Source: a virus
Taxonomy: Duplodnaviria; Caudoviricetes
Strand: one strand, 5' to 3'
Virus record (IMG/VR): IMGVR_UViG_3300034356_000821
Coordinates: 1 to 56,635 of that record
DNA length: 56,635 nt
Shown: one piece after another, positions 4,481 to 54,006 of the stretch
Numbering within the stretch: the first letter of the stretch is position 1
How the letters are laid out: the number at the start of each line of letters is the position of its first letter
Translations under genes and position numbers: made by a program
The notes under the pieces: model-generated
What the model was told of the DNA's origin: nothing
The model's input: only the letters and a program-made list of their open reading frames with translations
Database searches by the model: none

Positions 4481-4510
4481 ATTATACAGGCTTTGCAAAA
4501 CCCCTGTCAA
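4481..4510 (-). promoter_or_regulatory. sigma70 early promoter TTGACA-N18-TATAAT
   Basis: Perfect consensus hexamers; -35 flanked by an inverted repeat. Confidence 0.85.
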
Positions 4511-5913: not shown

Positions 5914-6868
5914 CTATTCAACCACAATCGGTGAAGGGTCTTTCTCGTGTGTGCAGGCATTATGCAGCGGGTAAGGCTTCGTTGCCGATATCGTATACCG
6001 CCCCTTTTACTGACCCGTTAGTCATTAAAATCAACCGTTTTCAGGGTATCGAAGATATCGGCAACTGTTTTTGAATCAGTTTCTCATATGCGTGTAAGTC
6101 TTTGAATTCATTGAAGAATATGCATGCATGGTGTAATGCACAGCGTATGCATCACTCACCTGTGCAGCTATGTATGCCTATGCACTCATGCCTGTGCAGC
6201 GCAGCGCTATGCGGCCCGTGCGTGGGCCAGTAGGGGGTGGGGCGCTATATGTATACAACGAAGCCCACAGAACAGCTTTTTCAGACCTGTTAACCACCAC
6301 CGCCTAAAACACTCTATCCGTACACACTGTAGCCCACACAAGTGCTACACAGCCTCTACAATCGCTTAACGTCACAGGAGTGTTGCAGAGGCAACACCAC
6401 CCCCTACAGGACCAACAAAGCGTTTCAGACAACACAGCCTATGCTGCTACAGAAAACCAACCATGAATACATAGACTACTACTATCCACTTACACTATGT
6501 TGCAACAAAACAACATATGCAAATATATCGCTTGACAACATTTTACGTGTCGATATAACATAGGGGTATTGGGGCTTGGGGCTATGTAGACTATGTAGTG
6601 ATGCAGAGAGCATAGATGACATAGGGTACATAAATGTTCTTGCTCTATGTTGACAAACGATTATAGACCATCATCAACCCCTAAACACAGACTATGAAGT
6701 CTATAAAGCCGCTAACGCAATATCGACCATGAAGATAACAACTATTGATTGTTTATTGTTTTTCTTTTATTTGTTGTTTGCTTTGTTGTTGTTTAGCGAT
6801 ATACTCTCTCATCACTAGCCTACACATCTATAGATAGGCAGCTATGAAGACCTATATAGTAGAAGCAT
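5914..6868. other. ~950-bp non-coding region between the divergent arms; candidate true genome end or replication origin
   Basis: No credible ORF; short CTATG and CCTGTGCAGC repeats; T-rich tract at 6745-6795. Confidence 0.5.
6532..6559 (+). promoter_or_regulatory. Possible rightward promoter TTGACA-N16-TATAAC
   Basis: Near-consensus hexamers upstream of the late arm. Confidence 0.45.
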
Positions 6869-10251: not shown

Positions 10252-10727
10252 CAACAGATGTTGTTACAACAGACTATGATTTTGGTCTAGGTGTCTTCAT
10301 ACTGCCACAGCCCAAAGATGCTAAAGAGTATGTTAAGATACCACGATTGGGAAGAACTATACCTTTTGGTTATGTAGTTGATGAAGCCGATGATGGCTGG
10401 CTTGTTCCTGTAGCTTTAGAGATAGAGGCGCTGGAGAAAGCTAAGAAGCATCTGAAGCAATACAGCTTGAGGCAGGTATCGGCTTGGCTCACTACTGTGA
10501 CTGGTAGAGAAATAAGTCATGTTGGTTTAATGAAGAGGATTAAGAGTGAACAGTCCCAAAGACGTAAGTCCTCTACTTATCGAGAGCTTGCCGACAGGTA
10601 CGAAAAAGCCCTTAAGAAAGCGCAAGAGTACGAAAAAAGAACAGGCACCGGACAAGACAGCTTCTTCGGTAGTGATCGATTCGTCCAACTTAGCGCCACC
10701 TTCCCCGACAGAAGCGCCGATAGCTGA
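10248..10727 (+). CDS. DNA-binding protein (PFGY recombinase-like/HTH domain)
   Basis: RTIPFGY...YSLRQVSAWL...ISHVGL. Confidence 0.7.
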   Translation: MTTDVVTTDYDFGLGVFILPQPKDAKEYVKIPRLGRTIPFGYVVDEADDGWLVPVALEIEALEKAKKHLKQYSLRQVSAWLTTVTGREISHVGLMKRIKSEQSQRRKSSTYRELADRYEKALKKAQEYEKRTGTGQDSFFGSDRFVQLSATFPDRSADS

Positions 10728-12132
10728 ACCTGTTGAGTATGAGAACATCATATTCAAACCCAACCCCGGTCCTCAGACATCCTTCCTAGCTGCTCCAGAG
10801 CGTGAAGTGTTGTATGGTGGTGCAGCAGGTGGTGGTAAGAGCTATGCCATTCTTGCTGACCCTCTGCGCTACATGGCTCATCCTCAATTTTCTGGTTTGA
10901 TTCTTCGACACACCACAGAAGAACTACGTGAACTCATTTGGAAATCGCAAGAGTTGTATCCAAAGATATATCCCGGCATCAAGTGGAGTGAGCGTAAGAT
11001 GCAATGGCAGCACCCAAGTGGTGGCAAGCTGTGGATGTCCTACCTTGACCGTGACGAAGATGTTATGCGTTATCAGGGTTTGTCGTTCTCATACATCGCT
11101 TGGGACGAGTTGACACAGTGGCCTACACCGTTTGCCTACAACTACATGCGTTCTCGTCTGCGTACAGCAGCACCTGATCTGCCTGTGTTCATGAGAGCTA
11201 CCACCAACCCCGGTGGTCCCGGCCATCAATGGGTCAGGAAGATGTTTATTGTCCCTTCACCGCCCGGTAAGAGCTTCTATGCTACCGATATTGAGACAGG
11301 ACAGACGCTAATCTATCCTAAAGGACACAGCAAAGAAGGCTTGCCTCTGTTCAAACGCAAGTTTATATCGGCTAGGTTGGCAGACAATCCCTATTTGGCT
11401 GAGTCTGGTGACTATGAAACCATGTTGTTGTCTCTACCAGAGCACCAACGTAAGCAATTGCTTGAGGGAAACTGGGATGTTGCTGAAGGTGCAGCGTTTT
11501 CGGAGTTCAATAGGGCTATTCACGTAGTAGACCCGTTCACTATTCCATCAAGTTGGCCCCGTTTTAGGTCTGCTGACTACGGATATGGTAGCTATAGCGC
11601 TGTATTGTGGTTTGCTGTAGCACCAGATGACAGCGTGGTGGTCTATAGAGAGCTTTATGTCAGCAAAGTGCTGGCAGAAGACCTTGCTATGATGATATTG
11701 AACGCAGAAGACGGTGAAAAAATACGTTATGGTGTGTTGGATAGCTCATGTTGGCACAAACGTGGTGACACTGGACCCTCTATTGCTGAAAGAATGATCA
11801 TGAAGGGGTGTAGATGGCGACCCGCTGATCGTTCTGCTGGTAGTAGGGTGGCTGGTAAGAACGAAATACACCGCCGTCTACAGGTTGATCAATATACTGA
11901 AGAGCCTCGCATGGTGTTCTTCAATACATGTACACAAATCATTGCAGACTTACCAACTTTACCAATTGATAAGACAAACAACGAAGACATTAACACCAAA
12001 GTAAGCAATGATCACACATATGATGCGTTGCGTTATGGTGTAATGAGCCGTCCACGTAGTGGATTGTTTGATTTTGATCCTGCTTCACAATCATCGGGAA
12101 TGAAGATAGCAGACCCTGTGTTTGGATATTGA
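10546..12132 (+). CDS. Terminase large subunit
   Basis: Walker A GGAAGGGKS, Walker B WDE, ATTNPGG, RNase H-like DYG and DHTYDALRY; GTG start with GAGGA RBS. Confidence 0.95.
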   Translation: MNSPKDVSPLLIESLPTGTKKPLRKRKSTKKEQAPDKTASSVVIDSSNLAPPSPTEAPIAEPVEYENIIFKPNPGPQTSFLAAPEREVLYGGAAGGGKSYAILADPLRYMAHPQFSGLILRHTTEELRELIWKSQELYPKIYPGIKWSERKMQWQHPSGGKLWMSYLDRDEDVMRYQGLSFSYIAWDELTQWPTPFAYNYMRSRLRTAAPDLPVFMRATTNPGGPGHQWVRKMFIVPSPPGKSFYATDIETGQTLIYPKGHSKEGLPLFKRKFISARLADNPYLAESGDYETMLLSLPEHQRKQLLEGNWDVAEGAAFSEFNRAIHVVDPFTIPSSWPRFRSADYGYGSYSAVLWFAVAPDDSVVVYRELYVSKVLAEDLAMMILNAEDGEKIRYGVLDSSCWHKRGDTGPSIAERMIMKGCRWRPADRSAGSRVAGKNEIHRRLQVDQYTEEPRMVFFNTCTQIIADLPTLPIDKTNNEDINTKVSNDHTYDALRYGVMSRPRSGLFDFDPASQSSGMKIADPVFGY

Positions 12133-12189: not shown

Positions 12190-14274
12190 ATGGCACTAAT
12201 TGACAAACCACAAAGCGACAAGAATATTGTCTTGGACGATTCCTCAAAAACTGAAGATACCTTCAAGGCTGGTGGTCTAATCGCCTTCGTTAATCAACGA
12301 TATACTCGTTCTGAAGAAAGTCGTCGAACTGATGAGACACGTTGGCTTCGTGCTTACCGCAACTATCGTGGCCTCTACGGTCCCGATATGCAATTCACAG
12401 CAACAGAGAAGTCGCGTGTGTTTGTGAAGGTGACAAAGACTAAAGTGTTAGCTGCATATGGGCAAATCATTGATGTGTTGTTTTCTAACAACAAATTTCC
12501 ATTGAGCATTGACCCGTCTGTGTTGCCTGAAGGTGTGTTGGATTCTGTTCACTTTGATCCAAAAGCTCCAGAGTCTGCACCAACCATTCCTTTCGGTGAA
12601 GAAGGTGGCGCTAATATCGGTAAAGACTTTGACCTCGACAATCTTGAAGAGATGTTGGGTGCGTTGAAGAATGACTTGAAAGATGTTCCCGGTTTGAAAA
12701 AAGGGCCGGGACAAACACCTACTTCTATAACATTTAGTCCTGCTATGGTGGCAGCTAAGAAGATGGAGAAGAAGATTCATGATCAGCTTGATGAAAGCAA
12801 TATGAATAAACATCTCCGCGCTACAAGCTTTGAAATGTCATTGTTTGGTACAGGTGTAATGAAGGGTCCATTCGCTGTCAATAAAGAATATCCAAACTGG
12901 AAAGAAGACGGTGTATATTCTCCCGTTATTAAAACAGTACCAGAAGGTTCTCACGTTTCTATCTGGAACTTCTATTGGGACCCTGATGCAAATAACACAG
13001 ACGAATGCCAATATGTTATTGAGCGACACAAGATGTCACGTACTCAACTTCGTCAACTGAAGAACCGTCCTTATTTCCGTAAGAACGTTATCGACGACAT
13101 CATTGCTGGTGGCGAAGGATACTCGAAAAAGTATTGGGAAGATACCATCAAAGATTATTCTTTAAATTATGGTGTTGATCGTTTTGAAGTGCTTGAGTAT
13201 TGGGGTAATGTTGATGTTGATATGCTCATTGAAAATGAAGTTGATATTCCTAAAGAGTTAGAAGATGTGGGTGAGTTGCAAGCAAATATCTGGTATTGCA
13301 ACGGTAAGATTCTTCGTTTAGTTTTGAATCCTTTTAAGCCTTCAAACATTCCATACTATGCCGTACCTTATGAACTCAATCCATATAGTCTTGCTGGTAT
13401 TGGTGTTGCAGAAAACATGGATGATACACAGACGCTGATGAATGGTTTCATGCGTATGGCTGTTGATAATGCTGTGTTGTCTGGTAACTTGGTGTTTGAG
13501 ATTGATGAAACCAACCTTGTACCCGGTCAAGACATGAGTGTATATCCCGGCAAAGTGTTTCGTCGTCAAGGTGGCGCTCCCGGTCAAAGCTTGTTTGGTA
13601 CAAAGTTTCCTAACGTATCGCAGGAAAACCTTCAGTTGTTCGACAAGGCTCGTCAGCTTTCCGATGAATCAACAGGTATGCCCTCGTTTGCTCACGGTCA
13701 AACTGGTGTGAGTGGTGTTGGTCGTACAGCTTCTGGTATTTCGATGTTGATGAATGCTGCCAGCGGTTCAATTAAGACTGTTATCAAAAACGTTGATGAC
13801 TACTTGCTGGCACCACTCGGTAAATCTTTCTTCAGCTTTAACATGCAATTTGATTTCGATCCAGAAATCAGAGGCGACTTGGAAGTTAATGCTCGTGGCA
13901 CAGAATCGTTGATGGCTAATGAAGTGCGTAGTCAACGCCTTATGCAGTTCTTGCAGATTGTTAGCAATCCTGCTCTTATGCCATTCGCTAAGATGCCCTA
14001 CATCATCCGTGAGATTGCTAAGTCAATGAACCTTGACGAAGACAAAGTTACAAACAATATGGATGAGGCTGCTCGTCAGGCAGCGTTGATGGCACCGCCT
14101 GCTGCACCCGCTGGCGCTCCAGCCGCTGGTGCTCCACCTATACCGGGTGCTGGCGGTCCTCCCGGTGTTGCAGACATGACAGGCGGTGGTGGTGGCAACA
14201 TCGGTATTGGTGCTGCCCCTGTACCGGGTGAGCAAGGCTTTAGCGCTGCACCTCCACAGATGCCGGGGATGTAA
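12190..14274 (+). CDS. Portal protein
   Basis: 694 aa after TerL; GTGVMKGP, GIGVAE, RTASGISML motifs; Pro/Gly tail. Confidence 0.92.
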   Translation: MALIDKPQSDKNIVLDDSSKTEDTFKAGGLIAFVNQRYTRSEESRRTDETRWLRAYRNYRGLYGPDMQFTATEKSRVFVKVTKTKVLAAYGQIIDVLFSNNKFPLSIDPSVLPEGVLDSVHFDPKAPESAPTIPFGEEGGANIGKDFDLDNLEEMLGALKNDLKDVPGLKKGPGQTPTSITFSPAMVAAKKMEKKIHDQLDESNMNKHLRATSFEMSLFGTGVMKGPFAVNKEYPNWKEDGVYSPVIKTVPEGSHVSIWNFYWDPDANNTDECQYVIERHKMSRTQLRQLKNRPYFRKNVIDDIIAGGEGYSKKYWEDTIKDYSLNYGVDRFEVLEYWGNVDVDMLIENEVDIPKELEDVGELQANIWYCNGKILRLVLNPFKPSNIPYYAVPYELNPYSLAGIGVAENMDDTQTLMNGFMRMAVDNAVLSGNLVFEIDETNLVPGQDMSVYPGKVFRRQGGAPGQSLFGTKFPNVSQENLQLFDKARQLSDESTGMPSFAHGQTGVSGVGRTASGISMLMNAASGSIKTVIKNVDDYLLAPLGKSFFSFNMQFDFDPEIRGDLEVNARGTESLMANEVRSQRLMQFLQIVSNPALMPFAKMPYIIREIAKSMNLDEDKVTNNMDEAARQAALMAPPAAPAGAPAAGAPPIPGAGGPPGVADMTGGGGGNIGIGAAPVPGEQGFSAAPPQMPGM

Positions 14275-14486
14275 TGATGGATAAGCCGTTTCTGCCAAAG
14301 CTTAAAGGTATGTTGAACAGTCCTCATTTGTGGGAAGCCTTTGTTGAGAAGCTTGATTATGATATTGAGCAACACCAACGCAAGCTGGAACAAACGACTG
14401 AGATGTCTGACGTGTTTAAAGCACAAGGTGCAATAGTTGCACTACGTCAGCTAAAGTATTTGAAGGAAGAAATCAATGCTAAATGA
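14274..14486 (+). CDS. Small portal-adjacent protein
   Basis: FKAQGAIVALRQL motif; overlapping starts and stops. Confidence 0.75.
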   Translation: MMDKPFLPKLKGMLNSPHLWEAFVEKLDYDIEQHQRKLEQTTEMSDVFKAQGAIVALRQLKYLKEEINAK

Positions 14487-15873
14487 AATGTATAAACTGT
14501 TTGCCGAGGGCGGTGTCATGCAAGAGGGTGGCACAGTCGATCCAGTTTCTGGTAACGATGTACCTCCCGGTGCTATGGCAGAAGAAGTTAGGGACGACAT
14601 TGACGCTAAACTTAGCGAAGGTGAGTTTGTCATTCCAGCCGATGTGGTGAGATACATTGGTTTGGAAAAGCTGATGATGATGCGTGACAAAGCTAAGGCT
14701 GGTCTTAAGCGTATGAACGATATTGGTCAGATGGGTAATGCTGAAGAAGTTCCTGATGCTGAAGCCCTGCATAGCGGTGGAGATGAAATGGATGATGAAT
14801 CTTTCTCGTCAGAGATTGATTCCATTATGGGTGAGGATGGGGGTCAAGAATATGCAGCAGGCGGTGATGTACGTAAGTATGCGCCGGGTGGTTATATTGG
14901 TGGCACTGCAAATCAAGAACTTTATAAAGATGCACCAATCCGTGGCTTTGAAATGGTAGAGATGGTGAATAAGGATGGTCAAGTCATTTACATCCCGTTC
15001 ATTAATGGCAGACCTCAGTTATCTATCCCTCAAGGATATACAGTTAAGTCGTCTGATATAACAACTACCACACCAACTACTCCTGCAACTGGTACAGGCA
15101 CAACCACTCCACAACCTACTGATGGTGGCGGCGCTGATGCTGGTGCTCCCGCTGCACCATCGTCACCGGGCTTTACTATTGGAGAAGACGGGGTTGCTAC
15201 TGCAAATACAACAAGCACCACTATTGGTTCTGTACTAGGTGCAGTTGTTGGTATGGTTACAGGATTATCTCCTGCCATGACATCACAGATTGGTAAGTCA
15301 GCGGTCAACCAATCAAACATTGCAAACACCCAAGCTGCGTTGTCTTTCAACACTGCTGTTGCTGATAACATGGCAATGGACAATTCACCAGCCGCTACCG
15401 CTGGTCCTACTGGTACAGGTGCGGCAGCAGCCTCTGCTGGTTCCGCTGCTGCCGCTGCTGCTACCGCTGTTGGTCATTCACCCGAAGCAGTTGCTGCTGC
15501 TGCACAGGCTGCTGCTACTGCTACAGTTGGTGGCGCTGGTCCCGCTGCTGCTGCCGCTGCTGCTGCCGATGCCGCTAACGCTGTCGCTGCCGATGCAGCC
15601 GATGCTGAAGGTGGTGGTCTTGGTACTGGTATCGGTATAGGTAGTGGTGGTACTGCCGCTGCTGATGGTGTAGGTGCTGATGGTATGGGTGTCGGTGCTG
15701 GTGTAGGTGGTGTAGGTGGTGAATCAGGTGTCAGCGCCGCTGGTGAAGCTGCTGGTGGCGCACCGTCAGGTGGTGGTGCTGACGGTGATGGTACTTATGC
15801 CAAAGGCGGCTTTGTATCCAAGAAGAAAACTACAACACCTAAATCAACATCGCTAGTATCTCGTCGTAAGTAA
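14476..15873 (+). CDS. LSEGEFV-domain protein with five tag motifs and an Ala/Gly-rich tail; candidate maturation or cargo factor
   Basis: DDIDAKLSEGEFVIPADVVRYIG; FAEGG, MQEGG, YAAGG, YAPGG, YAKGG. Confidence 0.8.
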   Translation: MLNEMYKLFAEGGVMQEGGTVDPVSGNDVPPGAMAEEVRDDIDAKLSEGEFVIPADVVRYIGLEKLMMMRDKAKAGLKRMNDIGQMGNAEEVPDAEALHSGGDEMDDESFSSEIDSIMGEDGGQEYAAGGDVRKYAPGGYIGGTANQELYKDAPIRGFEMVEMVNKDGQVIYIPFINGRPQLSIPQGYTVKSSDITTTTPTTPATGTGTTTPQPTDGGGADAGAPAAPSSPGFTIGEDGVATANTTSTTIGSVLGAVVGMVTGLSPAMTSQIGKSAVNQSNIANTQAALSFNTAVADNMAMDNSPAATAGPTGTGAAAASAGSAAAAAATAVGHSPEAVAAAAQAAATATVGGAGPAAAAAAAADAANAVAADAADAEGGGLGTGIGIGSGGTAAADGVGADGMGVGAGVGGVGGESGVSAAGEAAGGAPSGGGADGDGTYAKGGFVSKKKTTTPKSTSLVSRRK

Positions 15874-15886
15874 GCTATAATATAAA

Positions 15887-15981
15887 TGCTAAAGTCTGTG
15901 GTGGGCAGACTAGCACTTAATAACACCCACCATCATTGGCTACCTGACTCCCCGATATTATCGGCTACAGCGCGGCCCCAA
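15887..15981 (+). promoter_or_regulatory. Structured leader of the scaffold gene (pseudoknot plus double internal-loop stem)
   Basis: Pairings found by inspection; TATAAT at 15876. Confidence 0.65.
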
Positions 15982-15995
15982 CTTAAAAGGTATTT

Positions 15996-16859
15996 ATGAC
16001 TGAAATGGTAATGGAACAGAAAGCTGTTGTTGTCCCCTTTGGTAAACGCAACGCCAACCGTGAACGCATCGAACAAGAAGAAGCTGAACTTAAACAACTA
16101 AGCGAAGAAAATGTTAACGGAAAGCGCAACTCTGAAGAAAATAACGAAGACGATAGCAACTTGAGCGCTGAAGAGAAAAGCTTCAAGAAACGTTATGGTG
16201 ATCTTCGTCGCCATTCACAACAGCAATCTTTGGCTTTGCAGAAACAAATTGATGAACTGCGTAGTCAACTTACTCAGTCTACCGAGAAACAAATTAAGCT
16301 GCCAACGAATGAAGAAGACTTGGCTAAGTGGGCAGCAACATACCCTGATGTGGCAAAGATTGTAGAGACAATTGCCATTAAGAAAGCTAAAGAGCAAACT
16401 GCTTCAATGGAGCAACGCTTTGCGGCATTGGACGAACAAGAGAAACTAACAGCACGAGAAAAGGCTGAACTTGAACTTACAAGAATTCATCCAGACTTCG
16501 ACACCATCCGAGACACCGATGACTTCCATACTTGGGCAGATGAACAACCAGCTTGGGTACAACAAGCTTTGTATGAGAATGATACAGATGCTCGTTCTGC
16601 TGCTCGTGCCATTGATCTGTATAAGAGTGATCGCAACATTAGTAAGGCGAAATCGGAGAAGAAAACTTCTGGTGCAGCAGAGAGTATCAACACTCGCGGT
16701 AGCCGATCTGCTCCGTCCGGTGTAGACACTGATGGTCTAATCTACGAATCGCAAGTGAACAAAATGAGTTCTTTGCAGTACGAAAAGAACGTTGAAGCTA
16801 TTCAGAAGGCTATGCAGACTGGTAAGTTTGTGTACGATATGAGTGGCAATGCACGATAA
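15996..16859 (+). CDS. Capsid scaffolding protein
   Basis: Acidic coiled coil; FKKRYGDLRRH, HPDF motifs; precedes the capsid gene. Confidence 0.88.
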   Translation: MTEMVMEQKAVVVPFGKRNANRERIEQEEAELKQLSEENVNGKRNSEENNEDDSNLSAEEKSFKKRYGDLRRHSQQQSLALQKQIDELRSQLTQSTEKQIKLPTNEEDLAKWAATYPDVAKIVETIAIKKAKEQTASMEQRFAALDEQEKLTAREKAELELTRIHPDFDTIRDTDDFHTWADEQPAWVQQALYENDTDARSAARAIDLYKSDRNISKAKSEKKTSGAAESINTRGSRSAPSGVDTDGLIYESQVNKMSSLQYEKNVEAIQKAMQTGKFVYDMSGNAR

Positions 16860-16862
16860 CAG

Positions 16863-16892
16863 TTGACAAGTTTTGAAAAATCATAGTATAAC
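16863..16892 (+). promoter_or_regulatory. sigma70 promoter TTGACA-N18-TATAAC for the capsid gene
   Basis: Near-consensus hexamers. Confidence 0.75.
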
Positions 16893-16928
16893 TATGACAT
16901 GGTGGTGGAATGCCACCGACACTACATC

Positions 16929-17100
16929 ACTGCCGCTGCTTGCAACAGCCACCAGTCATTAGTACTTTTAGTAAAGACACTTGTTGTGTCAATCTGTAAC
17001 GCAAAACAATGAACTGTCAGAAATACCTGAAGTTTTGTTAGCCCGTTATTTTCCGTTGGGCACTTCGGAATAATAATGTACCTAGCGAAGTCAGCCTCTG
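16929..17100 (+). promoter_or_regulatory. Structured leader of the capsid gene with CC/YAC internal loops
   Basis: Same architecture as the scaffold leader. Confidence 0.6.
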
Positions 17101-17154
17101 TAGTAGTGTTAGCGTATTTAATTATATGCCAATATATCTATAGGAGATTTTAAT

Positions 17155-18225
17155 ATGGCTTTCCCATCAGCAGTCGGTAACGGCAATCTGCCCAATGGTA
17201 ACTTCAGTGCAGTTATCTATTCCAAGCAAGTACAACTTGCATTCCGTAAAGCTTCTACAGTTGAAGACATCACCAATAGCGATTACTTCGGTGAAATCGC
17301 TAACATGGGCGACAGCGTAAAAATCATCAAAGAACCTGAAGTGTCGGTGCAAGCCTACGCTCGTGGTACTCAGATCACAGCGCAAGACCTCGACGACGAA
17401 GACTTCACCTTGGTTGTTGATCAGGCTAACTACTACGCCTTCAAGATCGACGACATCGAAGCTGCTCACTCGCATGTGAACTTTATGCAGATGGCATCGG
17501 ACCGCGCTGCCTATCGTCTGCGTGACAACTACGACCAAGACGTGTTGGCGTATCTGGCTGGCTTCCAACAGTCTGCTAAGCATGCTGCTGGCGACACCAC
17601 TCGTACCACTGCTCCCGGCACCAAAGCTGTTGCCTCCGCTGGTTCTGACGAATTGTTGGCTACCATGAAACTGAGCCGTCCTAGCTTTGGCAACTTGACT
17701 AGCGCTGGTTCTACTGGTGACTCCATCCCATTGGCCCCACGCTTCCCCGGCGCTACTGCTGTTTCCACTACCACTGTGTCCCCTCTGACTGTGATTGCCC
17801 GTATGGGTCGTCTGTTGGATACACAGTTTGTGGACACTCAAGGTCGCTGGTTGGTCGTTGACCCCGTGTTCGTTGAGATGTTGAAGGACGAAGACAGCCG
17901 CCTGTTGAATGGTGACTTCGGTGGTTCTGGTCTGCAAAACGGTTTGATCTTGAACAACCTGCATGGCTTCCGTATCTATGTGTCGAACAACACTCCTAAG
18001 TTTGGTACTGGCCCCGGCACTGCTGGTGCTTCTGCTCAGGCTACCAACTTCGGTGTGATCGTTGCTGGTCATGACTCTGCTGTGGCAACTGCTCAACAGT
18101 TGACAAAGACTGAGACATATCGTGACCCCGATAGCTTCGCTGACATCGTGCGCGGTATGCACCTGTATGGTCGCAAAATCTTGCGTCCTGAAGGTATCGT
18201 GGTTGCACGTTACAACGTGGCCTGA
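17155..18225 (+). CDS. Major capsid protein
   Basis: GEIANMGDSVKI, GRWLVVDP, FADIVRGMHLYGRKILRPE; AGGAG RBS; strongly biased codon usage. Confidence 0.95.
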   Translation: MAFPSAVGNGNLPNGNFSAVIYSKQVQLAFRKASTVEDITNSDYFGEIANMGDSVKIIKEPEVSVQAYARGTQITAQDLDDEDFTLVVDQANYYAFKIDDIEAAHSHVNFMQMASDRAAYRLRDNYDQDVLAYLAGFQQSAKHAAGDTTRTTAPGTKAVASAGSDELLATMKLSRPSFGNLTSAGSTGDSIPLAPRFPGATAVSTTTVSPLTVIARMGRLLDTQFVDTQGRWLVVDPVFVEMLKDEDSRLLNGDFGGSGLQNGLILNNLHGFRIYVSNNTPKFGTGPGTAGASAQATNFGVIVAGHDSAVATAQQLTKTETYRDPDSFADIVRGMHLYGRKILRPEGIVVARYNVA

Positions 18226-28180: not shown

Positions 28181-30817
28181 ATGGCTGAAAACTTTACAGC
28201 AAAACAAAAAGAAATCGTAGCACGTAAGATGGGCTATGACGGTCCTATGCAGGGCTTTGATCAATTCCTTAATTCATCTCCGTCATTAGGCATGCGATAT
28301 TCATCCATCACTTCTAAGTTTGCTGAGCGCATGGCAAAGGGTGGTGTTGTAAAGAAGTTTAATGTTGGTGGCTCTGTCATGTCGCCTGAACAACTTCAAA
28401 GTATTAACGCATTTTTAGCAACCAATCCTTCCCCTCAAGAGTTGGCTGCTGCACAACAACAATATGGTGTGACTGAAGTAGATTTGGCCGCTGCTAGGCA
28501 GCTTAGCGATTCTAGTCAACTAGCTGCTAATCGTGCAGCCGTTCGTGCTGACATGGCTGTAACAGGTGAAGAGTTTCGTATTGCCAACCCCGGTGGTGAT
28601 GTGACAATTCAAGGCACACAACGACCTGCAATGTCTGCCATTCCACAGTCTGAAATTGATGCTGCACGGGCACGCCTGACACCAGAGCAGCAACAGTTTA
28701 TTGATTGGAAGATGAAACAGATTGATCCAATTCAGCAGGGAACAATTGGCGACCAGTTTGCCCGTAGTGGGGTCAACCCATATCTGGATGCAGCAGGAGC
28801 GCAGACACAGATTGACCGTGCCACAAGTCGTGAGGCGGCGTTTCAGCAGGCTGGTGTTACACCAGAAACTAACCTACGCCCGTGGACAACGGCATCAACT
28901 ACAACTCCAGCAGCCAACACAACAACAGCATCAAGAACAGTTGTTGGCGGTGGCAATACAACTACTACACCTTCTCCATTTGTGATTGGCGGTGGCAATC
29001 CAACACCTTCAACAACAGTTGGCCCCGGCCCTATAACACCTTCACAGGTTGGTAATACTCCCGGCTTGGGTGCAGGTGGTATCGGTGTTAACGTTGGCAC
29101 CACAGGCACTACAGGTACAACAGGCACAACAGGCACCACAGGCACCACAGGCACCACAGGCACCACAGGTACAACACCCACCACAGTCACTGCGCCCGAT
29201 GGACCAGTTATGGGTGCTACACCAACCTACACAGCAGCACAAACTGCCACTACTGGTTTGGGAGCACAGGCTACTACTATTGCTCCCATTACTACAGCCA
29301 CTGCTGCTGCTCCTGTTGAAGCGGCAGGTGTCACTGCTCCTGCTCCAATTGTTGCACCAACTGTCACTGCTGCACAATCTGCTCCCGGTGTTAGTCAAGC
29401 GGTGTCGGGTGTAACTGCTGAGCAAGGTACGTTGTCACAACAAGCGCAGGTAACAGCGGCTCAACAAGACCCACGTACAACTGCTGTTTCTACTCTCACT
29501 GCTGCACAGGGTGAAGCTGCTCAGGTTGCTGCTCCTGCTGTTCGTACAGCGCAGGCTGGTGAGATGGTGTCTGGTTCAGCCGTTGACATGGGTAGGGTTG
29601 ATACAGAACTTGCAAAGACACAGGCTGCTCAGGGTGTTGTCACTGAAGAGATGACAGTGCAGGGTCAGTTGAACAAACTCACTAAAGACTTTGACGCTGG
29701 CAATCCACCACCTTGGGCTGCTGCGTCCATGAGGGCGGCTACAGCACAGCTTGCTGCCCGTGGCCTTGGTGCTAGTAGCCTAGCTGGTCAAGCCATCATT
29801 CAAGCCACGCTAGAGGCTGCTACACCCATTGCTGCTGCTGACGCTAAAGTGTTTGAGACAATGGGGTTGCAGAACTTGTCCAACCGTCAGCAAATTGCTG
29901 TGCTTGTTGGTCAACAACGTGCTCAGTTTCTTAGTCAAGAGTTTGATCAAAACTTTCAGTCTCGTGTTATCAATGCTGCAAAGATTAGTGACATTGCTAA
30001 CAAGAACTTTGATGCTACAGTTACTATTGCTTTGGAGAACGCTAGGCTTGCCAACACAATGAACCTTGCCAATCTTTCGTCAAAGAACGCATTGATCTTG
30101 GAGGAGGCTGCTGCCATGTCTCGCTTGGAGACACAGAACCTGAACAACCGTCAACAGGCTGCTGTTCAGAATGCTCAGAACTTCTTACAGATTGATATGA
30201 AGAACTTGGAGAATCGTCAACAGACATCAATCTTCAAGGCACAGGCCATTGTTAATTCGTTAGTGAGTGATGCTGGTTTTGAGAATGCTACACGAGCAAC
30301 CAATGCCAGCAATAAACTAGAAGCTGATAAAATCTCTGCAACATTGGCACTCACGGCTCAACAGTTTTCAGCGTCTGAGAAGAACAAGCTTGCTGTTGCC
30401 AACATGGATGCAGCCAATGAGCTTATTAAATTTAATGCTCAAGAAGCTAATGACAGAGCAGACTTCAATAATAAAATGTCTGCGGAGATTAACGTAGCTA
30501 ATGCTAGAATATTAGCTGAAGTGTCTACAGCCAACACCGCTGCTGTCAACGCAGCCAATGCTCTTAATGCTAAGAACGCCACAGACTTGACAGCAGCACA
30601 GTATGCACAGCAGAGTCAGACCTATCGTGACTTGCTTGAGATGTCTTGGAAGACTGGTGAAAGTGGTAAAGATCGTATTGTTAATTTGGCAATTGCTTCT
30701 ATCGCAAGAGATGTTCAGAATATTAAAAGTGATAGTGAAAACAGTTCGGCTTGGGGTAAGTTATTCATTGAAGGTGTAAAGAACTGGGACACCCTGAAAA
30801 ACATCATTAGTGGATAA
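28181..30817 (+). CDS. Internal virion / ejection protein
   Basis: MAKGG and FNVGG near the N-terminus; Thr/Pro linker; Asn/Gln/Ala-rich helical repeats. Confidence 0.8.
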   Translation: MAENFTAKQKEIVARKMGYDGPMQGFDQFLNSSPSLGMRYSSITSKFAERMAKGGVVKKFNVGGSVMSPEQLQSINAFLATNPSPQELAAAQQQYGVTEVDLAAARQLSDSSQLAANRAAVRADMAVTGEEFRIANPGGDVTIQGTQRPAMSAIPQSEIDAARARLTPEQQQFIDWKMKQIDPIQQGTIGDQFARSGVNPYLDAAGAQTQIDRATSREAAFQQAGVTPETNLRPWTTASTTTPAANTTTASRTVVGGGNTTTTPSPFVIGGGNPTPSTTVGPGPITPSQVGNTPGLGAGGIGVNVGTTGTTGTTGTTGTTGTTGTTGTTGTTPTTVTAPDGPVMGATPTYTAAQTATTGLGAQATTIAPITTATAAAPVEAAGVTAPAPIVAPTVTAAQSAPGVSQAVSGVTAEQGTLSQQAQVTAAQQDPRTTAVSTLTAAQGEAAQVAAPAVRTAQAGEMVSGSAVDMGRVDTELAKTQAAQGVVTEEMTVQGQLNKLTKDFDAGNPPPWAAASMRAATAQLAARGLGASSLAGQAIIQATLEAATPIAAADAKVFETMGLQNLSNRQQIAVLVGQQRAQFLSQEFDQNFQSRVINAAKISDIANKNFDATVTIALENARLANTMNLANLSSKNALILEEAAAMSRLETQNLNNRQQAAVQNAQNFLQIDMKNLENRQQTSIFKAQAIVNSLVSDAGFENATRATNASNKLEADKISATLALTAQQFSASEKNKLAVANMDAANELIKFNAQEANDRADFNNKMSAEINVANARILAEVSTANTAAVNAANALNAKNATDLTAAQYAQQSQTYRDLLEMSWKTGESGKDRIVNLAIASIARDVQNIKSDSENSSAWGKLFIEGVKNWDTLKNIISG
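29096..29176 (+). repeat. 9-nt tandem repeat x9 encoding (Gly-Thr-Thr)9
   Basis: GGCACCACA-type units counted directly. Confidence 0.9.
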
Positions 30818-30826
30818 AGGAAATAT

Positions 30827-31027
30827 ATGCAACACATTAAAAATTATATGAATAAAATTGAAGATTTAATTTCTTCAAGAGAAAAAGAAGCCAAGAAAAC
30901 AAAAGAAGTTAAGGGACTTCTGACACCAGTAAAGTCTTCAACACCTTCTCAAAAAACTGAGTTGGATATTGTTGCCAGCTTTGTTCAAAGTATTCGACAA
31001 ACCCGAGAGGAAATGAATAATGGCTAA
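30827..31027 (+). CDS. Small internal virion protein
   Basis: AAGGA RBS; within the ejection cluster. Confidence 0.7.
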   Translation: MQHIKNYMNKIEDLISSREKEAKKTKEVKGLLTPVKSSTPSQKTELDIVASFVQSIRQTREEMNNG

Positions 31028-31511
31028 TCTTAGTCCCCTTGATGTTATTAAACCTGTACCACCCGGTATCTCGTGGACAGCAGAACCACGTAGTCGTCCT
31101 TGGTCTACACCACCTAAATTTGTTACAGTGAATGATGTTGCTCAAGGATACGTCAACAATCTGTCGTCTGCTAATATGGTTAACTCCACTCTCGACGCAA
31201 TTGAGACTGGTGTGCCGTTGGCCGCATTAGCTAATGGAATGATGTTGTCCGGTGTAGCTTCTGGTATTCATACGATTGATACAGGCATCTTAGTAACTCC
31301 AGTTATTATTGAAATGTTGAAGACGATTGCTGAGATTCATGGTATTAAATATCAAGTATTTGAAGAGGATGAAGATGCTGGTATTATTCCTGATCGCGTA
31401 GCGAAACAGGCAATGAAGAAAGCTTCGTCTGTTGTTGAAGAAGTTGTTGAACCTAAAGTAGAGCTTTTAGGGTTGATGGCTCGTAATCCTAAAAAGATGG
31501 AGAGTATGTAA
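31020..31511 (+). CDS. Internal virion protein
   Basis: PGISWT...PW..PP motif; C-terminal GLMAR. Confidence 0.75.
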   Translation: MANLSPLDVIKPVPPGISWTAEPRSRPWSTPPKFVTVNDVAQGYVNNLSSANMVNSTLDAIETGVPLAALANGMMLSGVASGIHTIDTGILVTPVIIEMLKTIAEIHGIKYQVFEEDEDAGIIPDRVAKQAMKKASSVVEEVVEPKVELLGLMARNPKKMESM

Positions 31512-52921: not shown

Positions 52922-54006
52922 ACCATTCCTCTCATGTTCTGTGCCACTGTAGCACTCTTCAATGTGTGTTTGACATACGGTGTAAGGCTATGCACTGTGG
53001 CATGACCACTCAGAGCCATGACGTTTGTGAGAGCTACACCAACTTCAACCATCTCTGTGATAGCTGTTCTACGCAAGTCCATTAGCTGAAGTTCATCAGG
53101 CAGTCCAGCTTCCTGCATCACCACCTTACCCGCCTTGCTCAACTGCTGCAAGCTGTAGGGCTTGGGTGTGTTCTTCGTTGAAGCTGGCATTATAAATGGT
53201 TGCCATGACAGGTCAACGTGTTGTTGCTTCAGCATCTCTTGCAAATCTTTTGGTAGCGGTATAGCCACCCTTGCCCTACGTTTGCTCTGCTCCAACGACA
53301 ACACCCCTGTGTTGATGTCATAGCTGTCCCATGTCAGCATACGCATGTCACCAAGTCGTTGCGCTGCACAGTAGGCTGTGTACACAATGAGTCCAATGCT
53401 TCGCCATTCATACTTGCTAAATGCTGTAGCCATGAAAGCTTTGATGTGTTCCTTCGTCCACACTGTGCGGCGTGGTCGGTCTGTCTGTCGCTTGACGTTG
53501 GTGAAGGGATTGAATGTACAGAATCCATTACGTATAGCATAGCTAAACAACAGACGATACACAGCCAATGAATGATTGGCTAAGCTAACACTGTTGCCAG
53601 CATGAGTGTCATAGATTTGTTGGCACATCGGTGTTGTCAAACTGCCAAGCCTCGTGTGCAACAACACCTGCCCTGCTGTGCGATCTTGATACCATTGCTT
53701 GAGATAGTAGGCATAGTCTGAACGTGTCTTGATACCAAGCCTGCTATGTTCAAGACTGTTGACATAGCTCTTGGTCAAGTCGTTGACGGTTGACTTGTCT
53801 GTCAAGTGTTTGAGGTAGCGGTGATGCTGCCTCCACTCGTCCATCAACTCGTTCTGTTCGTTGCAATAGTTGATGGCTTCAACAAGGTTGGTGCCTATCT
53901 TGATGCGCTTGACAATGTTGGCTTCGACAGCATCAGCGGGTGGGTTGTATCGGTAGTAGGCAACACCATCATTGTCAACACGCTGCATGTAACGGGCTAG
54001 GTTCAT
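52918..54006 (-). CDS. Tyrosine recombinase / integrase
   Basis: QRLGD, QSK, DLRRT, SGH, PY catalytic motifs. Confidence 0.88.
   Translation of the reverse strand: MNLARYMQRVDNDGVAYYRYNPPADAVEANIVKRIKIGTNLVEAINYCNEQNELMDEWRQHHRYLKHLTDKSTVNDLTKSYVNSLEHSRLGIKTRSDYAYYLKQWYQDRTAGQVLLHTRLGSLTTPMCQQIYDTHAGNSVSLANHSLAVYRLLFSYAIRNGFCTFNPFTNVKRQTDRPRRTVWTKEHIKAFMATAFSKYEWRSIGLIVYTAYCAAQRLGDMRMLTWDSYDINTGVLSLEQSKRRARVAIPLPKDLQEMLKQQHVDLSWQPFIMPASTKNTPKPYSLQQLSKAGKVVMQEAGLPDELQLMDLRRTAITEMVEVGVALTNVMALSGHATVHSLTPYVKHTLKSATVAQNMRGMV

Follow-up and report, generated by a model that had tools for sequence, protein, structure and literature searches.

A CC/YAC internal-loop RNA motif in the leaders of the scaffold-position and capsid genes of an aquatic phage and its relatives

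How tailed phages balance the output of their scaffold and capsid proteins is, to our knowledge, largely unexplained, and the head module of the virus IMGVR_UViG_3300034356_000821 raises this question at the level of its messenger RNAs. The window (the whole stretch of 56,635 nucleotides (nt) analysed here) is a complete 56.6-kb virus record, and near-identical DNA is present in lake-water metagenomes. Its major capsid protein gene follows a gene for a protein of 287 amino acids (aa), a candidate scaffold-like protein by its position, its composition and the long helices of an AlphaFold model. A preliminary description of this DNA had pointed to five internal loops in the leaders of these two genes, each with CC on one strand and YAC on the other, and had proposed that a dimeric protein co-regulates scaffold and capsid. 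Every string quoted there was found in place. The comparison with relatives presented below shows that these CC/YAC modules have covarying stems, conserved loop letters and set positions relative to the start codons.

The comparative set was obtained by scanning IMG/VR with the capsid protein. At least 600 stretches were found, and the best 80 loci, with 66–97% capsid identity, were used together with the window (81 sources). Scaffold and capsid genes are both held by 74/80 loci. The significance of the CC/YAC loops comes from this comparison and not from the window alone, where the loose helix-CC-hairpin-YAC-helix pattern is not enriched (25 occurrences on both strands, mean of 29.2 in 20 shuffles). 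In the relatives, the motif is kept down to 66% capsid identity.

The scaffold leader carries two opposed loops, A and B, in a single hairpin (Table 1). Thirty-nine distinct sequences, from 38 relatives and the window, parse as YUGG-CUAC-P2-CC-(CC..GG hairpin)-CUAC-P2'-CC-CCAR, and the two strands each read GG-CUAC-N5-6-CC-CC, forming a two-fold pseudo-symmetric duplex. Loop A is CUAC in 36/39 of these sequences, while loop B is CUAC in 31/39, CAAC in 6/39 and CUUAC in 2/39. When they were aligned with MAFFT, T8, A9 and C10 of the first CUAC, C18 and C43–C45 were invariant (numbering of the first sequence). The P2 helix between the loops occurs as 23 different strand pairs, with a complementarity of 0.875 for cognate and 0.42 for non-cognate strands. 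The apical stem had been read as CCGAUA/UAUCGG with 6 base pairs (bp); because this would leave a loop of 1 nt, it was corrected to 5 bp closed by a triloop. Six relatives (L013, L014, L016, L018, L020 and L078) have a single-loop scaffold element, for example GGG-CCAC-CUG(AUGAGA)CAG-CC-CCC.

In order to describe this hairpin across the set, a covariance model (R1) was built from a hand-given structure and the parse. R1 matched 54/81 sources and had a single match in the window (46.3 bits, E 6e-12; runner-up at 11 bits with filters off). Its alignment was 79% paired, against 24–45% with slid partners, both sides changed at 10/13 pairs, and the covariation score was reached by 0/500 shuffles, figures that are biased towards the structure since the alignment was fitted to it and was made from related sequences. 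RNAalifold predicted no pairs when the scaffold leaders were simply aligned with MAFFT, because the 5-bp and 6-bp classes of P2 are out of register, and the scaffold leader showed no folding advantage over shuffles (z -0.5). Searching IMG/VR independently by pattern yielded 80 loci with flanks, 34 of which passed R1; all of these (34/34) lie directly upstream of a scaffold homologue with 43–61% identity. For the remaining 46, chance is the probable source, as the pattern is short and the collection very large.

In the capsid leader, two loops are nested within one larger element. Most relatives share one fold over the last 125 nt before a conserved AGCCUCUG block, and 54 distinct leaders parse as NNRGA-(N)YAC-P2/P3-CC-P4-CAC-P3'/P2'-CC-UCUG. 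The corresponding model, R2, gave 70.1 bits in the window (E 3e-20) and matched 59/81 sources, with 81% pairing in its alignment against 29–39% with slid partners. Helices P2 to P4 are 82–90% paired, and both sides change at 13/14 pairs. A marine subgroup and a few other loci are missed by R2; by eye, a related but altered arrangement is seen there. The apical loop of P4 (17055-17062, and likewise in relatives) often retains GGC(C)A, as in UUGGGCACU, AGGCCAAC and CGGCCA, while the rest of P4 is variable; this apex may serve as a contact or as an additional recognition site. The earlier claim of one loop motif with differing stems upstream of both genes is thus borne out, as the stems covary and the motif is kept in relatives. 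Covariance models from homologous leaders had been suggested as the check, and R1 and R2 both recovered the elements, with covarying helices, in relatives.

The elements also occur in named phages. The closest are Puniceispirillum phage HMO-2011, the CRP roseophages and the uncultured spring-water podophage MW202701. R1 and R2 matched HMO-2011 with 46.9 and 66.3 bits, CRP-1 with 46.8 and 49.5 bits and MW202701 with 57.4 and 61.5 bits, in every case immediately 5' of the scaffold-position gene and of the coat gene, respectively. HMO-2011 and CRP-1 are cultured, the former with SAR116 and the latter with a Roseobacter strain, and the host entries in the records of these two carriers are Candidatus Puniceispirillum marinum and a Rhodobacteraceae bacterium.

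Known RNA families did not account for the elements. Rfam 15 searched with cmscan (E up to 10) over 15000-18000 gave no plus-strand match within 15874-17154. The sole overlap was Hammerhead_HH9 on the minus strand, scoring 16.2 bits where the gathering score is 52 (E 2.2). Weak matches to PinT, isrG and microRNA families lie inside coding regions and were treated as chance. No description of these leader elements was found in the full-text literature; they may be listed in PMC10690425, a 2023 catalogue that draws 8,495 candidate structured RNAs from the intergenic regions of IMG/VR and whose alignments were not compared. As far as checked, the elements are an undescribed and widespread phage leader RNA motif.

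Table 1. Features of the head module and its two leaders (window coordinates unless stated; ORF, open reading frame).
Feature	Position	Strand	Sequence or remark
Scaffold-leader double-loop hairpin, 46 nt	15936-15981	+	from strings, parse and model R1
P1, scaffold hairpin	15936-39 / 15978-81	+	UUGG / CCAA
Loop A, scaffold hairpin	15940-43 opposite 15976-77	+	CUAC opposite CC
P2, scaffold hairpin	15944-49 / 15969-75	+	CUGACU / AGCGCGG
Loop B, scaffold hairpin	15950-51 opposite 15965-68	+	CC opposite CUAC
P3, scaffold hairpin	15952-56 / 15960-64	+	CCGAU / AUCGG, AUU triloop
Shine-Dalgarno and start codon, scaffold-position gene	15987-90; 15996-98	+	AAGG; AUG
Scaffold-like gene	15996-16859	+	287 aa, acidic product; phrog_13678, without named function
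Host-type promoter	16863-16892	+	TTGACA - 18 nt - TATAAC; directly 3' of scaffold stop codon
First capsid-leader hairpin	16901-16917	+	GGUGG-UGGAAUG-CCACC; from fold
5' hairpin module	16929-16956	+	ACUG-CC-GCUG(CUUGCAA)CAGC-CAC-CAGU
Conserved CA-rich single-stranded stretch	17000-17009	+	CGCAAAACAA
Capsid-leader nested element, about 85 nt	17018-17100	+	from strings, parse and model R2
P1, capsid element		+	CAGA/UCUG; weak
Outer loop, capsid element	17022-26 opposite 17095-96	+	AAUAC opposite CC
P2/P3, capsid element	17027-41 with 17082-94	+	CUGA..UUUUGUUAG and CUAGCGAAG-UCAG
Inner loop, capsid element	17042-43 opposite 17079-81	+	CC opposite UAC
P4 long hairpin, capsid element	17044-78	+	
Small hairpin	17112-17129	+	GCGUAU-UUAAUU-AUAUGC; between element and ribosome-binding site; kept in freshwater-clade alignment
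Shine-Dalgarno and start codon, major capsid gene	17142-46; 17155-57	+	AGGAG; AUG
Major capsid protein gene	17155-18225	+	356 aa; phrog_267 major head protein, E 3e-63
Possible H-type pseudoknot	15896-15935	+	AGUCUG - UGGUGGG - CAGACU - 14 nt - CCCACCA; tentative
Terminase large subunit	10546-12132		head module
Portal	12190-14274		head module
70-aa ORF	14274-14486		between portal gene and 465-aa ORF; without family match
465-aa ORF	14476-15873		Gly/Ala/Thr-rich; precedes scaffold leader
Inserted gene, scaffold-capsid gap	L084 2549-3118		

The position of each element was then compared with that of the start codon (AUG) it precedes. In 44 distinct sequences, the 3' end of the scaffold P1 lies 8–18 nt (median 14) from the AUG, and the Shine-Dalgarno sequence (SD) begins 0–6 nt past P1 or overlaps it, as in CCCUAG-GAG. 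With its short hairpin running up to the ribosome-binding site (RBS), the scaffold element has the anatomy of a translational operator. The 3' end of the capsid element lies 45–62 nt upstream of the AUG and does not abut the RBS (54 distinct parsed leaders; L034, whose parse is doubtful with a score of 6, was left out). Unpaired positions whose letters are kept while the helices around them covary are usually a sign of a protein site or of a tertiary contact. The same loop occurs three times in the capsid leader, which argues for one common factor and hence for coupled control.

On these sequence patterns, we regard as evenly poised the reading that the modules are operator RNAs bound by one protein and that this protein couples scaffold and capsid translation. 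The modules are helices broken by a small asymmetric internal loop that sets CC against YAC (mostly CUAC or CAC). Two of these loops stand opposed in the 46-nt hairpin of the scaffold leader, which ends at the RBS. In the capsid leader, for which a host-type promoter of its own is present, one loop lies in a 5' hairpin and two are nested in the 85-nt element about 55 nt upstream of the AUG. In this reading, all of these loops would be sites for one common RNA-binding protein, which at the scaffold element would block or modulate entry of the 30S subunit and on the capsid leader would alter fold or stability. The output of both procapsid proteins would thereby be coupled. In a variant where the scaffold protein is the binder, procapsid assembly would consume free scaffold and so set the translation rates and the scaffold:capsid ratio.

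Operators of this kind have partial counterparts. The E. coli thrS operator has hairpins just 5' of the SD, where a dimeric protein binds in competition with 30S subunits; a C-loop-type internal loop is reported for this operator, and its hairpins mimic tRNA anticodon arms. A structured hairpin just upstream of the SD is likewise present in the scaffold leader, whereas nothing tRNA-like was seen in the phage leaders and Rfam was without a match. The coat operators of MS2 and PP7 are single hairpins with an unpaired base that include the start codon, and a symmetric coat dimer represses translation from them. A capsid-related protein acting on a small hairpin near a start site is also what is proposed here, but those are single hairpins of RNA genomes, whereas this is a double-stranded DNA phage with repeated modules upstream of two genes.

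Several observations weigh against coupled operators bound by one protein. R1 detects neither the capsid element nor any other copy in the window (next best 11 bits), so the likeness of the two leaders rests on loop and architecture and not on homology at the level of the models. In the capsid element, P1 is 61% paired with a double change at one pair, and its outer loop, the fifth, is therefore less secure than the inner one. As this element lies about 50 nt from the SD, direct occlusion is inapplicable there. The opposed loops are 5–6 bp apart in the scaffold leader and separated by about 13–15 nt of helix in the capsid leader. No recognisable RNA-binding family of the window is conserved with the motif in five other motif-bearing genomes. 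Finally, the AlphaFold2 model of the scaffold-like protein (mostly long helices, predicted local distance difference test score 75.6) showed neither a fold match in the PDB (none at E <= 0.001; best E 2.9) nor an RNA-binding fold, which is not evidence against binding.

The loop geometry also bears on the dimeric protein proposed in the preliminary description. The shared loop with its covarying stems and the abutment of the scaffold copy to the RBS speak for co-regulation, and the two-fold pseudo-symmetry of the scaffold duplex would suit a homodimer. One fixed dimer geometry is nevertheless unlikely, because the two leaders space their loops differently, some relatives have a single-loop scaffold element, and the capsid 5' hairpin carries one loop only. 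On these grounds, a protein that would recognise each module separately is more probable than a rigid site for a dimer.

The structure of the loops themselves raises the question whether a protein is needed at all. All five modules place 2 nt opposite 3–5 nt and are flanked by covarying helices, and are thus asymmetric internal loops within stems. In PMC9516175 and PMC4551918, the C-loop is described as an asymmetric internal loop in a hairpin stem, with a long strand that often begins with C, three core unpaired bases and a short strand of 0–2 nt. CAC, CAAC and CUAC begin with C and the short strand CC has 2 nt, as in a C-loop. In contrast, the common CUAC has 4 nt, the frequent UAC, AUAC and UUAC start with U or A, and CC is conserved here where known C-loops have a variable bulge. 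At the level of sequence, the CC/YAC signature is compatible with a C-loop. The hairpins might therefore act as RNA only, protecting the two late mRNAs of highest abundance from decay that depends on the 5' end, or favouring an initiation fold, with CC/YAC as a self-contained structure, for instance a C-loop adjusting helical twist. We consider this the most probable of the alternatives, though unlikely. It agrees with the C-loop features of the signature, since C-loops are described as architectural in PMC9516175 and PMC4551918, with the place of the first hairpins near the inferred 5' end of the capsid transcript, and with the finding of no RNA-binding protein family conserved with the motif. 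It leaves unexplained both the fixed abutment to the scaffold SD and the reuse of one loop in the two leaders, and the conserved letters of the short strand, which is bulged and variable (0–2 nt) in C-loops (PMC4551918), do not fit it.

The capsid leader seems to begin at a promoter of its own. A near-consensus host-type promoter, TTGACA...TATAAC, comes after the scaffold stop codon in 74/74 loci holding both genes, as it does in the window. TTGAC-N16-20-TATAA has 4 occurrences in the window where 0.5 would be expected, the other sites being at 4482-4510 (minus strand), 6532-6558 (plus strand) and 53190-53216 (minus strand), and the capsid gene seems to belong to a very small number of units that have a strong promoter of their own. 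Judged from the position of the promoter, the first capsid-leader hairpin is likely at the 5' end of the transcript. The capsid intergenic region folds better than shuffles (z -3.16). Its 5' hairpin module, which carries a single loop (helix-CC-small hairpin-(N)YAC-helix), was found in 48/63 distinct leaders, marine subgroup included, against 80/1260 shuffles; in nine leaders of one clade, a plain hairpin with a UAGCUA-like loop stands in its place. Contigs of two lake metatranscriptome libraries match 16926-17159 and 17019-17178 with 0 mismatches. As DNA may be in such libraries, this is a weak indication that the capsid leader is contiguous with the capsid start; contig ends are not readable as RNA ends, and the four runs compared, without cover over the scaffold gene, are uninformative there.

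The distance between the two genes varies, and this shows where the capsid element belongs. The scaffold-capsid gap is 215–327 nt in 64 of 74 loci and 756–918 nt in the remaining 10 (L007, L008, L009, L015, L016, L023, L062, L063, L066 and L069), because an extra gene is inserted there, which the MW202701 record annotates as an HNH endonuclease. The insert lies upstream of the promoter in 4/10 of these relatives and inside the leader, between promoter and main element, in 6/10. In these six, about 500 nt separate promoter and capsid element, and the element is still 45–56 nt from the AUG. It stays beside the capsid gene despite the insert, which argues for a function linked to the start of this gene rather than to the promoter.

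Both the promoter and the size of the elements bear on RNA processing, in which the irregular hairpins would be cut by RNase III or RNase E and the scaffold and capsid messages thereby uncoupled and stabilised. T7 has RNase III sites in its late mRNAs and a structured gene 10 leader. The present phage resembles it in having irregular internal-loop hairpins before and between head genes of a podophage late region and a long leader ahead of the capsid gene, and the capsid element, at more than 30 bp in all, is long enough to be cut. The scaffold hairpin, however, has P1, P2 and P3 adding up to about 12–16 bp, interrupted by two loops, and falls short of the usual RNase III site, which needs about two helical turns. 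Moreover, a capsid gene with its own promoter needs no processing to obtain a separate message, and two further differences from T7 are a host sigma-70-type promoter in place of one for a phage RNA polymerase and loop letters that are conserved across distant phages. We regard processing as very unlikely. No terminator-like site was found on the plus strand in 15500-17500, where CCCCAACUUAAAAGG comes after the scaffold hairpin.

A conformational switch was considered for the 3' part of the capsid element. The conserved GCCUCU block, made up of the loop CC and the 3' strand of P1, would alternate between closing P1 and pairing with the SD, gated by temperature, a ligand or a protein. Minimum free energy (MFE) folds of the freshwater clade do pair CCUCUGUAG (17095-17103) with CUAUAGGAG of the SD region, and 3–5 of the 5 SD bases are paired in 14/16 sequences of this clade and 2 bases in the other two (36 folded overall). 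The pairing is missing from the MFE folds of most marine relatives, RNAalifold gave no covariation for it because the letters are invariant, and no such switch could operate in the scaffold leader, whose SD comes immediately after P1. This makes it the least probable of the readings weighed here.

Returning to operators bound by one protein, a phage-encoded binder should be among the few genes common to all motif-bearing genomes compared. The window and the five others share two TerS-like ORFs, the terminase, portal, 70-aa and 465-aa ORFs, scaffold, capsid, adaptor and tail genes, the ORFs 28181-30817 and 31020-31511, and an integrase. ASCH and WYL_2-like ORFs are the sole RNA-binding-like families in the window; they were rejected as binders, being present in 0/5 and 1/5 of the other genomes, respectively. 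The scaffold-like protein is the leading, unproven candidate. Its best-conserved stretch is FKKRYGDLRRH (residues 63-73, window 16182-16214), which is basic and aromatic; in 51 sequences, eight of its residues are invariant and two nearly so, and G68 is not listed among them. Its likeness to an arginine-rich RNA-binding peptide is suggestive and gives a lead for the scaffold as binder. That unassembled scaffold protein binds, through FKKRYGDLRRH, the CC/YAC modules of its own and the capsid leader is, taken as a whole, distinctly unlikely.

Less probable again, in our judgement, is a host binder such as a ribosomal protein or a chaperone of the Hfq or ProQ type, whose RNA site the modules would recruit or mimic. 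The search for a conserved phage RNA-binding family, which found none, would be explained in this way, as would the CA-rich single-stranded stretch adjoining the capsid element; the cultured carriers infect two different hosts and the window comes from lake water, which a conserved host protein would fit. Against a host factor stand the lack of any match to a ribosomal-protein leader or another family in Rfam and the strict linkage of the motif to two head genes. By inspection, the CA-rich block CGCAAAACAA recurs as a CGCAAA(A)CAA-like stretch upstream of the main capsid element in most relatives; possible roles for it are those of an enhancer or a chaperone site.

We know of no RNA operator or target that has been defined for the scaffolding protein of P22, whose gene is reportedly, in work of 1985 by Casjens and Adams and by Wyckoff and Casjens, autoregulated after transcription. 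The head module described here shares with P22 the gene order of portal, scaffold and P22-type coat, the coat of HMO-2011 being annotated as PF11651 (P22 coat), and the proposed logic is alike, with a free head protein feeding back on synthesis after transcription. It differs in that the RNA element is defined here and the regulator is not, and in that the capsid leader also carries the motif. A compact, sequence-defined RNA module before both head genes, in cultured phage-host pairs and many uncultured relatives, would add a widespread phage cis-regulatory family to RNA databases and improve the annotation of long "empty" gaps in head modules. If the scaffold protein were the binder, an assembly-coupled RNA feedback circuit would be conserved across an abundant aquatic phage group, and the first RNA operator for P22-type scaffold autoregulation would be defined.

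Upstream of the scaffold element lies a tentative H-type pseudoknot (Table 1). Its pattern was found in 26/53 leaders against 69/530 shuffles, and its stems co-vary upstream of the scaffold elements of L001, L004, L005, L007, L009, L010, L017, L023 and L030. Variants in relatives are UCCUG/CAGGA and ACCAG/CUGGU for stem 1, and UGACGGG/CCCGUCA and UAAGGGG/CCCCUUA for stem 2. Marine relatives have a different pseudoknot-like sequence, GAGGU-GGAUUA-GCUUC-UAAAAAA-UAAUCC, which overlaps the stop codon of the upstream gene.

Two minor observations concern the coding regions. The 465-aa ORF that precedes the scaffold leader has short DNA repeats (GGTGTAGGTGG...) and is the source of the weak microRNA and isrG matches in Rfam; in relatives, its conservation is confined to the ends, and the C-terminus retains an RGGLAS-like motif. 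The hexamer GGCTAC is present in 51 copies on both strands of the window, against 17.2 +/- 4.4 in shuffles. These copies are mostly intragenic, and codon pairs or a modification- or restriction-related site are possible explanations.

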